DNA of 64,000 nt from contig JAVZCZ010000001.1 of NCBI GenBank assembly GCA_038874135.1, positions 672,001 through 736,000 of the forward strand. Direction: 5' to 3'. The translations under genes were made by a program, and so were the position numbers. The stretch's first letter is position 1. Each line of letters opens with the position of its first letter. Source of the stretch: Candidatus Woesearchaeota archaeon. GTDB lineage: Archaea > Nanobdellota > Nanobdellia > Woesearchaeales > 0-14-0-80-44-23. Positions 38,421 to 42,082 of this stretch are shown piece by piece. A model generated the notes under the pieces. That model worked only from the letters and a program-made list of their open reading frames with translations. It was not told the origin of the DNA and did not search any database.

Positions 38421-38620
38421 AACTTTATATAGTTTCTTTCTTATATTGTTGTCCTATTTCCTATATCATATATAATTTCTCCATTTTCCTTATATAATCT
38501 GATCAATTGCAATAAAAACCGCTTAATCTCACTTTTTACACACACAAACAGCATAGTGCCCAAAAACAACATTTTTTTAACTCTTATATTTAAATACTTC
38601 TTCTTTTTACTCTGGCTTTT

Positions 38621-39202
38621 ATGAAAGAAAATATGCACCTGCCCATTATCCTTATTTCAGGCACGCCCGGAACAGGAAAAAGCACTCTTGCAAAATACCT
38701 ATCTGAAAAACTCACTTTTTACTCTATAAACTGCACACAGCTGGTAAAAGAAAAGAGGATTGCAAGCTATTTTGATAAAAGGCGAGAATGCTATGTCGTA
38801 GATGTCAAAAAACTAAATTCCACTCTAAAAAGTGAGATTTTGCGGCTTAAAAAGCTCACTAGCTCAAAAAAACTTAATCTAAAAGGCATAATCATAGATT
38901 CACATCTCTCCCACTTCTTCCCCGAAAAGGAAACAAGCTTGTGCATTATTTGTAAGTGTCCCCTCCCAATCTTAAGAAAGAGGCTTGAATCTAGAGGCTA
39001 CTCAAAAGATAAGGTCAGAGAAAATCTTGACGCAGAAATATTTGAGGTGTGTTTGCAGGAAGCAATAGAAAATGGCCACACCATAATTGAAGTGGATACT
39101 TCTAAGCCAGATTGCCTCGTTTCAACTCTTAAAAAGGTAAAAACTCTTCTGAACACACCCGATGACTTGTCCCGGACATGTCCCGAAATGTCCCAAAATT
39201 AG
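38621..39202 (+). CDS. Atypical adenylate kinase AK6/Fap7 family
   Basis: ISGTPGTGKST, IIDSHLSH, RLESRGYSKDKVRENLDAEI. Confidence 0.92.
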   Translation: MKENMHLPIILISGTPGTGKSTLAKYLSEKLTFYSINCTQLVKEKRIASYFDKRRECYVVDVKKLNSTLKSEILRLKKLTSSKKLNLKGIIIDSHLSHFFPEKETSLCIICKCPLPILRKRLESRGYSKDKVRENLDAEIFEVCLQEAIENGHTIIEVDTSKPDCLVSTLKKVKTLLNTPDDLSRTCPEMSQN

Positions 39203-39217
39203 GACATGTCCCGGACA
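39168..39217. repeat. Iteron-like array 1: TGTCCC at 39168, 39179, 39189 and 39207; full TGTCCCGGACA at 39168-39178 and 39207-39217
   Basis: Read directly; spans the AK6 stop codon and the convergent intergenic gap. Confidence 0.9.
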
Positions 39218-39265
39218 AATTAGGGATATCTACCTTAACTATCTTTGATAAAGATTTTTTAACTA

Positions 39266-40000
39266 TCACCTTCCGGAGATCAGTAGTTTGGTCTTTGCCG
39301 CAAGATAAAATCCTTTTTCCCTATTGCCTATTTGTCGGTCTAATATTTCAATTCCTTTTTTTCTGAGCTCACAGATGATGTTTCGAATGCTTTTTTCACT
39401 TCTTCCGACGAGTTTTGCTATTTCAGAATAGCTTATTGGTTTTTCAGTATAATGTAAAACTTTCAAAACTTCTAATTCGCCTGCTGTGAACCTGAATGTT
39501 TTTAAAGAATCTTCTGAGGCTAAAGGCATTTCAACACTTCTTTCTTTTAATTCCTTCCTAACTTTTTCTATTTTTTGAAAATTTTTTTCATTCTGTAAAG
39601 TGTCCCGGACATGTCCCGGACATGTCCCATTATCTGTCCCTGATTTTTCTGCCTCCTCGCGAACTTCTTTTAACTCTCTTTCTAATTCCTGAACCTTCCT
39701 TGAGAGTTCTGTTAGAATCTCGGCATTTTTTTCTAAGGTGCTAATCAGTTTTTCCTGCTCATTTTTTAATTCACTAATTTCTAGGCTTCTGGAATTGAGC
39801 TCTCTCCTGAAAAGTGAATGTTCTTCTTTGTTATTCAGGTGTTCCTGTGCAAAATACCTTATCCAAAGCCCAACCTTTTCTATATCCCCCCTAAGCCTTG
39901 AAAAGGAGAGCGAAATGCTTGATTCTATTGATTCTAAACTTCTACTCTTTTTCTCAGAATCCTCACTTTTTCCAATAAAAAACCTGGAAAGCCACCCCAT
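39266..40000 (-). CDS. Coiled-coil protein with C-terminal winged HTH (244 aa) carrying an intragenic repeat array
   Basis: Start MGWLSRFF at 40000, with a TATA ~25 nt upstream. Heptad region EISELKNEQEKL...LERELKEVRE, then FTAGELEVLKVL...ISYSEIAKLVGRSEKSIRNIICELRKKG...KGFYL. Confidence 0.85.
   Translation of the reverse strand: MGWLSRFFIGKSEDSEKKSRSLESIESSISLSFSRLRGDIEKVGLWIRYFAQEHLNNKEEHSLFRRELNSRSLEISELKNEQEKLISTLEKNAEILTELSRKVQELERELKEVREEAEKSGTDNGTCPGHVRDTLQNEKNFQKIEKVRKELKERSVEMPLASEDSLKTFRFTAGELEVLKVLHYTEKPISYSEIAKLVGRSEKSIRNIICELRKKGIEILDRQIGNREKGFYLAAKTKLLISGR
39601..39640. repeat. Iteron-like array 2: TGTCCCGGACA x2 + TGTCCC + ATTATC + TGTCCC, inside the wHTH gene linker
   Basis: Units at 39601-39611, 39612-39622, 39623-39628 and 39635-39640; encodes GTDNGTCPGHVRDT. 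Confidence 0.92.
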
Positions 40001-40123
40001 CTTGAAACTTTTAGTGCACTGGTTATATAAAAAGTTTGTTCTTGAAAAGTGAGTTTTAAGTTTATTAAGCAAGGCTTTACTGCTCAGAAAACCTTTTTAT
40101 ATTGCACCTACTTCAGATTAAAC

Positions 40124-41254
40124 ATGAATTTTCAGGCTATTCCAGAGTTGAAAGAGAAGAAGCTGGTCTCTTTTGAGATCTACTTCCTTTTAAAAGAACT
40201 CAAACTTTTAGAAGGTGCGCGGCTTCAACGCGTATACCAACCTTCTGAGAAGGACTTCCTGCTTGATTTTCATATTCCCTCTACAGGCAGGCGCTATCTC
40301 AGGATAATCCTGCCTAATTTGGCATTTCTAAGCCAAAATAAGCCGCAAATGCCCGCTAACATTATGCGGATGTGCGCCCTTCTGAGAAAACACTTAGAAG
40401 GGGCATTTCTCACAAAAATAGCGCAGGTTGGCATGGAAAGAATAGTCCAACTGGATTTCAGAGTGAAAAGTGAGTCTTATTCTCTATTCTTAGAACTTTT
40501 CAGCAGGGGAAATCTCATACTTTGCGATTCCAAGCTTAACATCTTAGGAGTTGTAGAAGAGCAGGAGTGGAGCTCAAGGAGAATTGCTCCAGGCCTAAAA
40601 TATGAGCTTCCACCCAAGAGTATAAACCCGCTTGAATTGTCAACAGAATCATTTAAGAGCCTTGCCTCATCTTTAGACAAGAGCGTAGTGCAGTTTATAG
40701 CCACGCAGCTTTCTATGGGAGGAGTATACGCTGAAGAAATCTGTCTGAGAAGCGGGATAGACAAAAATTTCAAAGCAGCAGCTCTCTCTGAAGATGAAAT
40801 TGAGAATATTTTGACCGCAATAAAAAACTTATTCGCAGAAAAACCAAGCCCAAGCATAATTTTTTATTCTGAAAAAATAGTGGATGTAACTCCCATACAG
40901 CTTAGACGCTACTCAGAACTTAGAACTCAAACTTTTGAGACATTCAGTTCTGCCATAGAAAACGCAGTGTCTGCTCTCTCAAATGCAGAAAGTCCAAAAA
41001 TTCAACATCTAAATAGAATAGTTGAAGAGCAGCAGAAGGCATTTGCTGATTTAACTAAAAAGGCTGAGCTGGCTGAAAAGAAGGCAGCAGCAATCTACTC
41101 CCATTATAATGAGATACAGAAAGTTCTAAACTTCCTTAGGGAAGAGCTGCATAGGAGCTCAATCTCAGAAGCGTTTGATAAATTGCAAAGTTTTAAAAAT
41201 ATAAAATCAGTAAACAAGAAGGAACGTAAGATCACATTTGAGTTTGAAGAATAG
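40124..41254 (+). CDS. NFACT/RqcH (NEMF-like) ribosome quality-control protein, short form
   Basis: GARLQRVYQ, LRKHLEGAFL...QVGMERIV, ELFSRGNLILCD, GGVYAEEICLRSG. Start taken at MNFQ. Confidence 0.88.
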   Translation: MNFQAIPELKEKKLVSFEIYFLLKELKLLEGARLQRVYQPSEKDFLLDFHIPSTGRRYLRIILPNLAFLSQNKPQMPANIMRMCALLRKHLEGAFLTKIAQVGMERIVQLDFRVKSESYSLFLELFSRGNLILCDSKLNILGVVEEQEWSSRRIAPGLKYELPPKSINPLELSTESFKSLASSLDKSVVQFIATQLSMGGVYAEEICLRSGIDKNFKAAALSEDEIENILTAIKNLFAEKPSPSIIFYSEKIVDVTPIQLRRYSELRTQTFETFSSAIENAVSALSNAESPKIQHLNRIVEEQQKAFADLTKKAELAEKKAAAIYSHYNEIQKVLNFLREELHRSSISEAFDKLQSFKNIKSVNKKERKITFEFEE

Positions 41255-42082
41255 ATGAAGTACAAAATGGAAGCAGAACCTAAGAACTTTTCAGTGAAGC
41301 CCAGCCCCTTTCTTTCACTGGCGTCAGCAATTTCAAAACTTGTCCTATTTTCAGCTATATGCTGGTTCTTTCTCATGATATTCAAATATTCTGCGGGTGA
41401 GGATACAATCTCAATGCTGCTTGAAACTTTCTCTCTTGATTTGAACCTCATCCGCACAACCGTTCTTCAACTATTTGTAGTCGCCTCTGTAATTTACATA
41501 GTCTATTCTGTGCTATCTGTGAATCAGATAAGTCTAGAAATAGGACGGGGCGTTCTGATCTATAAGCGAGGAATTCTTTTGGTGAAAAAGGATGTTGTTA
41601 GCAGCGATAATGTCGTGAGAATATACTCAGATAGCTCAAAGTTTTCAAGCATGGGAAAGCTCATACTGGAACTATCCGGACAGCTTCCCTTTATAGAGAT
41701 CCCATTTGTGCCCATGGTGAATAAGAAAGTGGAGCTCATTAAGCAGAAGATTTCAGAAGCGCAGGCAGAAGAGCTTGCTCGCAGGATATATGACATAGGG
41801 CGCGGCCAGATCGGCATTGAAATCGCACAGAAGATAAGCCGACTGATTTCTGTTCAGCAGGCATCTAAAGAAAGCATAGTTTCAGAGATAAAAAACATTT
41901 CAAGTCAGCAGAAGCTCGACAAAGACGTTTTTGAAGTTATCTTCTCTTATATGTTGAAGACTCACAGGATAACTAAGGACGAAGTGAAGGAGATTCTGTC
42001 AGAACTTATGAGGAGCGGCGTAATCTCACAGCAGGACGCCTCCGTGGTGCTTTTCAAGATCAATAATCTTCTAACCCCCTGA
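41255..42082 (+). CDS. Two-TM membrane protein with a bacterial-PH-like domain and a helical C-terminus
   Basis: Two TM helices, then LIYKRGILL...MGKLILE (bPH-like pattern). Confidence 0.55.
   Translation: MKYKMEAEPKNFSVKPSPFLSLASAISKLVLFSAICWFFLMIFKYSAGEDTISMLLETFSLDLNLIRTTVLQLFVVASVIYIVYSVLSVNQISLEIGRGVLIYKRGILLVKKDVVSSDNVVRIYSDSSKFSSMGKLILELSGQLPFIEIPFVPMVNKKVELIKQKISEAQAEELARRIYDIGRGQIGIEIAQKISRLISVQQASKESIVSEIKNISSQQKLDKDVFEVIFSYMLKTHRITKDEVKEILSELMRSGVISQQDASVVLFKINNLLTP

Follow-up and report, generated by a model that had tools for sequence, protein, structure and literature searches.

A coiled-coil/winged-helix gene with probable cognate repeat arrays in its linker codons and past its stop codon: a candidate self-binding chromosomal module of Woesearchaeales

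The DNA considered here (the window) is a stretch of 64,000 nucleotides, positions 672001-736000 of contig JAVZCZ010000001.1 (contig label C1), from a Candidatus Woesearchaeota archaeon, a tiny symbiotic organism of the DPANN group, whose genome (label G000) is a single contig of 909,956 bp with 40.8% GC and 99.4% completeness. The window contains a gene for a coiled-coil protein with a C-terminal winged helix-turn-helix (wHTH) domain, together with two arrays of a short GC-rich repeat, one within the codons of the interdomain linker and the other past the stop codon. We refer to the gene and its two arrays as the module. Its parts, in window coordinates, are listed below; model features are from AlphaFold2 (AF2), with confidence as the predicted local distance difference test (pLDDT).

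39269..40000, minus strand: coding sequence of the coiled-coil/winged-helix protein, 244 amino acids, from the open reading frame (ORF) list; stop codon at 39266-39268.
39965..40000, minus strand: N-terminal motif MGWLSRFFIGKS, a superfamily-wide conserved stretch in which basic residues follow an aromatic/hydrophobic cluster.
39644..39994, minus strand: long helix, residues 3-119 (AF2 pLDDT >90 over residues 30-110), predicted as a parallel in-register homodimeric coiled coil by a two-copy model.
39601..39641, no strand assigned: intragenic array, comprising 6 GGACA/TGTCC half-sites, within the codons of residues 121-134 of the disordered linker.
39275..39484, minus strand: C-terminal wHTH, residues 173-242, with recognition helix KSIRNIICELRKKG and a conserved C-terminal SGR (AF2, Foldseek and alignment).
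39168..39217, no strand assigned: downstream array, made up of 7 GGACA/TGTCC half-sites; it begins 49 bp after the stop codon and lies between convergent 3' ends.

An earlier note on this DNA, made from its letters and ORF translations, had described two GC-rich repeat clusters at these places, and both proved genuine. Exact copies of TGTCCCGGACA occur at 39168, 39207, 39601 and 39612 and nowhere else in the 909,956 bp, so that the genome-wide count called for at the time places all four exact copies at the module. With one mismatch allowed there are 8 matches where 0.25 are expected, a number reached in 0 of 100 shuffles. The two arrays are likewise the densest GGACA/TGTCC clusters of the 910-kb genome (mean 0.13 half-sites per 100 bp), the third-best cluster holding 4 sites. 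Four of the six GGACATGTCC palindromes in the genome belong to the module; of the remaining two, one is in a tRNA gene and one within a 424-amino-acid ORF. Across the whole genome, paired half-sites away from the module are as frequent as scrambled control words. We therefore rejected a regulon, given that no other clusters occur, that paired half-sites stand at control level and that the extra palindromes fall in a tRNA gene and an ORF. The 11-bp near-palindromic unit originally described gave way to a smaller one: as read from the repeats, the working unit is the 5-bp half-site GGACA, with consensus (A/G)GGACA(A/T)GTC and a spacing of 10-12 bp.

The layout is shared by many relatives. Orthologs were found at 25-60% protein identity, and the module is kept in at least 25 related genomes besides the host. 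In a six-frame search of 60 relatives, the closest orthologs (53-28% identity) all carried GGGACA(A/T)GTC arrays both within the linker codons and just past the stop, and in five relatives 9-mer clusters occurred only at the ortholog locus. Across 28 ortholog loci, taken from -900 to +350 of the stop codon, the commonest 6-mer was mostly (A/G)GGACA, at 9-21 copies against a local-shuffle maximum of 6-9, and the copies always formed two clusters, linker and downstream. GGACA-type genomes span 11 GTDB families; the layout is repeated on two additional metagenomic contigs, and four divergent metagenomic representatives also carry arrays. The distant homologs L048 and L014 yielded none. When 401 genomes of the order were searched with a profile, 92 gave a match at E<=1e-10, including 61 of the 281 high-quality ones.

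Linker arrays are present in all 19 of the GGACA-type ortholog loci that were analysed. They comprise 5-11 half-sites, 116 of 129 on the coding strand, and the same-strand spacing is 10-12 bp in 90 of 99 cases (mode 11). The half-sites are spread over the three codon phases in a ratio of 39:42:35, and the linker peptide GTS.GQVRDKS is the motif read successively in all three frames. This uniform codon phase, together with non-coding copies downstream, shows that selection acts on the DNA rather than on the peptide, as had been suggested from the host sequence. The downstream arrays, present in every ortholog with arrays, hold 5-14 half-sites, start 3-80 bp after the stop codon and typically begin with inverted sites or palindromes before passing into a direct run. 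The starts of the two arrays are 336-508 bp apart, with the wHTH-coding segment between them. Of all the elements, the downstream array is the most conserved: it is present without linker and promoter sites in L055, L067, L039 and L068. In several lineages (L037, L038 and L010/L045-47), one or two GGACA palindromes or half-sites also abut the TATA box.

Arrays of differing subfamilies occupy equivalent positions, and their sequence differs with the recognition helix of the encoded protein. Helix K[ST][IV]RN.I[YC] pairs with GGACA arrays; NT[VA]KN[QH] with CGTCTAGACG, TAGTCGACTA or GTCTAAACG arrays (two families); GTVKN[IA]I with ATGACA plus ATTACAC arrays (three lineages); and GTIKNRLN with GTAACATGTTAC (one family, downstream array only). 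Correspondence between different helices and different arrays argues that the protein binds its own locus, and from covariation and conservation we consider it very probable that the winged helix binds the arrays. The anatomy of the module, its uniqueness in the genome, its conservation, selection at the DNA level and the covariation of helix and array are matters of observation. The earlier proposal of a single-protein cis/trans module, in which the wHTH would bind its own locus, is thus supported by the covariation between subfamilies. Homologs do have repeats in the linker and downstream that change with the helix, as that proposal predicted; the change follows the subfamily and not the species, GGACA being common to all 11 families.

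The protein itself matches no annotated family. Nothing in Pfam exceeds a curated cut-off (the best, HTH_11, reaches 21 bits against a cut-off of 25), NCBIfam likewise yields no family at its curated cut-off, and neither Pfam nor the AF2 model reveals an ATPase or helicase-loading domain. Homologs fall into 766 representative clusters at E<=1e-3, and the neighbours in the ESM Atlas are only hypothetical or HTH_11, unannotated Nanobdellota clusters. Foldseek aligned only the C-terminal domain, to wHTH domains of the MarR/ArsR/SmtB type (MepR, SlyA, SmtB and NolR; E 3e-5 to 1e-3). The AF2 model, built on an alignment of 14 homologs, consists of the long helix (residues 3-119), disorder at 121-134, a short helix (134-155), a second disordered stretch and the wHTH (173-242); the disordered segment 121-134 comprises exactly the residues encoded by the intragenic array. 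A full-text literature search returned nothing on this protein family, and the proteins of an archaeal Dip divisome-positioning preprint (10.64898/2026.05.19.726155) are unrelated to it.

A two-copy prediction of residues 1-125 scored 0.51, whereas the best of three controls scored 0.00; among proteins of known structure, this score is reached by 20 of 30 pairs and by 1 of 23 single chains. At least 80% of contacts are shared between runs, partner pLDDT is at least 78, and the in-register contacts 78-78 and 103-103 lead to the prediction of a parallel coiled coil. The model supports dimerisation through the coiled coil, and the oligomerising role once ascribed to this region is thereby supported as a predicted dimer. 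At the N-terminus, 147 homologs share the composition (M)-G-[FW]-[FL]-[FL] followed by K/R at residues 6-10. This end may resemble the N-termini of MinE and Noc, MinE residues 12-28 being the part confirmed. A membrane-targeting role is, at this point, a lead only.

The genes on either side and the region ahead of the start codon complete the locus:

38621..39202, plus strand: Fap7/AK6-like P-loop kinase gene, convergent (Pfam AAA_18 at 1.4e-26).
40124-41254, plus strand: NFACT_N gene, divergent from the wHTH gene (family match).
40023..40053, minus strand: putative promoter, with a TATA-like TTTTTATATA box and a CTCACTTTT box ahead of it (read from the sequence).

The orthologous group is located between NFACT and the Fap7-like kinase, and synteny with this kinase, an ABC-2 permease and NFACT is kept across the order. 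The kinase, which in NCBIfam resembles PRK03839 ("putative kinase") with a score under the cut-off, adjoins the wHTH gene in convergent orientation at nearly every ortholog locus. Its alignment to orthologs stops at residues 161-164. In the host genome the downstream array overlaps the last codons of the kinase ORF: some 29 codons (39114-39202) continue beyond the end of the ortholog alignment and through half of the array, and this tail, ending in DDLSRTCPEMSQN, is probably an accidental extension of the ORF. On the other side (window 40124-42082), the NFACT homolog has 376 amino acids and covers the NFACT_N region only. It is followed with zero gap by an ORF of 275 amino acids that has hydrophobic segments and no family match; together the two may represent a split or remodelled RqcH/NFACT. 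In some lineages (L037 871-1776 and L041 1465-2406), the module is immediately preceded by a co-oriented gene of about 300 amino acids with HTH_5/HTH_20 and S_layer_C matches.

The segment 40023..40053 is probably the promoter of the wHTH gene, and it contains no GGACA site in the host genome. The promoter box recurs upstream of the wHTH orthologs and of the neighbouring kinase. Within the window, the CTCACTTTT box precedes three start codons by about 50-95 bp, those of the kinase, of the wHTH gene and of a 189-amino-acid gene, at 38528, 40053 and 42691 (genome positions 710528+, 712053- and 714691-), and in two of these three genes ATAGTGCCCAAAAA follows the TATA box. This 9-mer has 36 copies genome-wide, against about 10 estimated by chance, and also turns up ahead of the orthologs elsewhere. 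It may represent a promoter element particular to the lineage, or else an operator controlling a small regulon to which the convergent gene pair belongs.

The host genome has one paralog, a coiled-coil/wHTH protein of 187 amino acids at 185929-186492 (L035 1468-2031); a Xer-type recombinase lies some 3 kb away (182.5 kb), and the surroundings of the paralog yielded no repeat arrays. Another gene of the integrase family, at 217.3 kb, has an internal stop. In one relative the linker array is exactly where the gene divides between two contig ends, and contigs of others end at the linker or downstream array (breaks at L008 and L030 in G003, L012 in G056 and L006 in G001). Since assemblies break at the arrays, the module is probably under-detected and mis-annotated in metagenome-assembled genomes. 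In L010, a (GA)n microsatellite lies just past the downstream array (about 2285-2305).

Taken together, we propose that gene and arrays together make up a single cognate protein/DNA-site module on Woesearchaeales-type DPANN chromosomes, and that it serves as a self-regulating nucleoprotein landmark, centromere- or anchor-like, without ParA; we would give this reading about an even chance of being right. It entails binding, bridging, feedback and a landmark role, which we infer in the following scheme. The protein would be a parallel coiled-coil dimer bearing two wHTH domains on flexible linkers of about 50 residues, and these domains would bind GGACA half-sites repeated every 10-12 bp along one face of the helix. 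Such phasing, by placing the sites on one helix face, favours cooperative loading of many dimers, which would assemble on the linker-codon array and on the array past the stop. The linkers and the coiled coil would then permit bridging of the two arrays, giving one large complex with no second site of its kind on the chromosome. The minimal direct consequence would be feedback on transcription of the gene itself, through roadblock or looping and, in some lineages, also through the site at the TATA box. The complex itself would be the functional product, a unique chromosomal landmark, and the aromatic-basic tips of the N-terminal coiled coil might contact the membrane or another partner. We favour a landmark because the only clustered sites lie in and behind the protein's own gene, which leaves nothing else to regulate, and because the most conserved array is outside the transcription unit. 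A more specific version is speculative and rather doubtful: in this ParA-independent archaeal centromere or anchor, 10-25 dimers on both arrays would tie an origin-proximal locus to the membrane or division apparatus via the N-terminal tips.

Several results weigh against the proposed landmark. The cognate relationship is read from covariation among related, non-independent lineages, and a regulator with weak single-site targets may be compatible with the same sequences. Pfam returned no ParA/MinD-type gene (CbiA, AAA_31) over its cut-off in this 99.4%-complete, single-contig genome. The helical hydrophobic moment of the N-terminus is not exceptional (0.40, compared with 0.34 for internal windows, and 0.16-0.26 in this protein), which leaves the membrane or anchor idea weak. 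Occurrence in 92 of 401 genomes implies that the module is not universally required, although breaks of assemblies at the arrays are frequent, and such a patchy distribution argues against an indispensable role. Finally, the host genome and its family have no promoter-proximal site, and any feedback would here have to act from at least 360 bp inside the gene.

The main rival is a pure autogenous regulator, or homeostat, whose arrays would be auxiliary operators that repress its own gene by looping or roadblock; in a variant, the protein would do its real work in another capacity, for instance as a structural or membrane-associated coiled coil whose free pool the wHTH senses. The sites abutting the TATA box in several orthologs, the intragenic position (well suited to a roadblock), a wHTH of the MarR/ArsR repressor type and a patchy distribution that fits a non-essential function all speak for it. 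Operators, however, rarely need 10-25 half-sites, the family of the host genome has no promoter site, and the downstream array, which is the most conserved, lies beyond the transcription unit and is kept without linker or promoter sites in the four loci named above. We regard such a regulator as possible, though on the unlikely side. A polar barrier is improbable by comparison. Here, the bound protein would halt replication forks in the manner of RTP or Tus, or block read-through where the wHTH and kinase genes converge. Dimeric winged-helix proteins include RTP of Bacillus subtilis, half-site orientation is strongly biased, and in almost every ortholog the array occupies exactly the gap where the two 3' ends converge. 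Against this, the orientation of the module relative to the nearest cdc6 is inconstant among six genomes (4 head-on, 2 co-directional), the module is far from the skew extreme opposite the origin, and a dedicated protein that merely terminates its own gene is hard to rationalise.

An origin or terminus had also been raised for this locus. A non-Orc1/Cdc6 origin with its own initiator, of the lambda O/ori-lambda or plasmid Rep-iteron type and possibly a captured second origin like Sulfolobus oriC3/WhiP, would account for iteron-like phased arrays in the codons of an interdomain linker, for the long AT-rich spacer that follows the downstream array in some relatives, and for the 60-bp AT-rich tract adjoining the intragenic array. 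In the host genome this tract, pointed out at the start, is real (39541-39600; 20% GC against 37% for the gene), but orthologs do not conserve it, averaging 36% GC beside the internal array against 38% for the gene. The single orc1/cdc6 gene (Cdc6_C match) lies at 588.6-588.9 kb, 122 kb from the module. The extremes of cumulative GC skew fall at about 602 kb, which is 13 kb from cdc6 and about 110 kb from the module, and at about 93 kb; across the module, at 711 kb, the curve falls smoothly with no inflection. A scan for exact 11-mer repeats near cdc6 gave no clear cluster of origin recognition boxes (ORB). The protein has no ATPase or helicase-loading domain, and a tblastn search found no homologs in plasmid and phage collections and none confirmed in IMG/VR. 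On GC skew, the position of cdc6 and the non-conserved AT tract, a replication origin or terminus was set aside, and we hold a self-contained origin to be very improbable; a mobile-element origin was rejected on the missing plasmid, phage and viral homologs and the conserved chromosomal synteny. Six genomes (G166, G279, G010, G171, G295 and G000) have the module and orc1/cdc6 on one contig, 33-208 kb apart, in 6 of 6 where both could be placed. This is suggestive of a position in the origin-proximal third of the replichore, in lineages that are related and share gene order. Least credible of all is that the arrays bind no protein and are instead a low-complexity repeat of the peptide, a hairpin or terminator in the RNA, or scars left by recombination when a mobile cassette introduced the wHTH. 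The downstream array of the host genome does fold into a long hairpin (z = -5.3/-4.9), and direct repeats flank the wHTH-coding segment. The linker array, on the other hand, folds weakly (z about -2), an Rfam scan gave no match at the arrays (only a sub-threshold CRISPR-DR match outside them), and the purely direct AAGGACA repeats of orthologs such as L037 and L038 make a hairpin impossible, for which reasons we discarded an RNA element. Uniform codon phase, with the motif also in non-coding DNA, and orthologs unable to form the hairpin have already largely refuted this reading, and a layout stable over 11 families at 25-30% protein identity is unlike that of scars.

If the ParA-independent centromere or anchor proves correct, the module would be a minimal one-gene chromosome-positioning device for ultra-small DPANN cells, its site locked to the gene by the gene's own codons. 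To our knowledge, how chromosomes are organised and segregated in DPANN and most other archaea is largely unknown. Even as a mere autoregulator, the operator geometry would be unusual for archaea. The unannotated family offers a predicted cognate motif along with natural specificity swaps (four helix/motif classes), and a predicted motif for each subfamily makes function directly testable. It also presents a clean case of a DNA signal laid over coding sequence in three frames and kept at 25-30% protein identity. Because the arrays break short-read assemblies, they bear on the quality of metagenome-assembled genomes as well.

Known systems resemble the module in parts. In position, the linker array resembles lambda O/ori-lambda, where the repeats for the encoded protein are likewise set in the codons of its own flexible interdomain linker. 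Lambda O, however, marks a replication origin with an adjacent AT-rich unwinding element, whereas the module has no conserved AT tract and no skew signal; the module further differs in having a second array past the stop, a C-terminal DNA-binding domain and an archaeal chromosomal location. Archaeal Orc1/Cdc6-ORB origins are also unlike it, as the module is not next to orc1/cdc6 (122 kb here, 33-208 kb in five other genomes).

Among partition systems, ParR/parC of R1 and StbA/stbS of R388 likewise have two clusters of short repeats, phased at about 11 bp, beside the gene of the binding protein. Those repeats are cooperatively bound by the product of the adjacent gene and serve both as segregation site and as autoregulatory operator. 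ParR is nevertheless a ribbon-helix-helix protein whose repeats flank the promoter and whose operon includes parM, whereas the module encodes a wHTH and its arrays are intragenic and 3'. TubR/tubC of pBtoxis-type Bacillus plasmids offers a winged-helix centromere-binding protein on iteron arrays of about 12 bp; TubR differs in being small and without a coiled coil, with the TubZ GTPase encoded beside it and tubC upstream of the operon. No partner nucleoside triphosphatase (ParA, ParM or TubZ) was found among the neighbours of the module, and a classical partition locus was rejected because no ParA/MinD-type gene of the genome exceeds its Pfam cut-off and the neighbours are the Fap7-like kinase, NFACT and the ABC-2 permease.

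MarR/ArsR proteins share the wHTH fold by Foldseek, although the sequence here is under all curated HTH family cut-offs. A putative palindromic operator at the promoter of the regulator itself, as in MarR/ArsR systems, is seen at the TATA box in L037, L038 and L010/L045-47 and is absent from the host genome and its family. Intragenic operators such as lac O2 in lacZ and gal OI in galE cooperate over a few hundred bp via an oligomeric repressor; these are single sites in a downstream structural gene, whereas the module has multi-copy phased arrays in the regulator's own codons. Similarly, the parS site in spo0J/parB of Bacillus subtilis is a landmark inside the gene of its own binding protein, and RacA, which acts on ram sites, combines a helix-turn-helix with a coiled coil and anchors origin-proximal sites. 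Noc, which acts on NBS sites, binds the membrane through an N-terminal peptide. ParB, RacA and Noc differ from the module in having 10-70 dispersed sites and ParB/MerR-type folds, as opposed to one locus per genome. Overall, the family appears to be undescribed, and the principle we propose for it would have its precedents, by analogy, in lambda O/ori, parS in spo0J, ParR/parC, TubR/tubC and lac O2.

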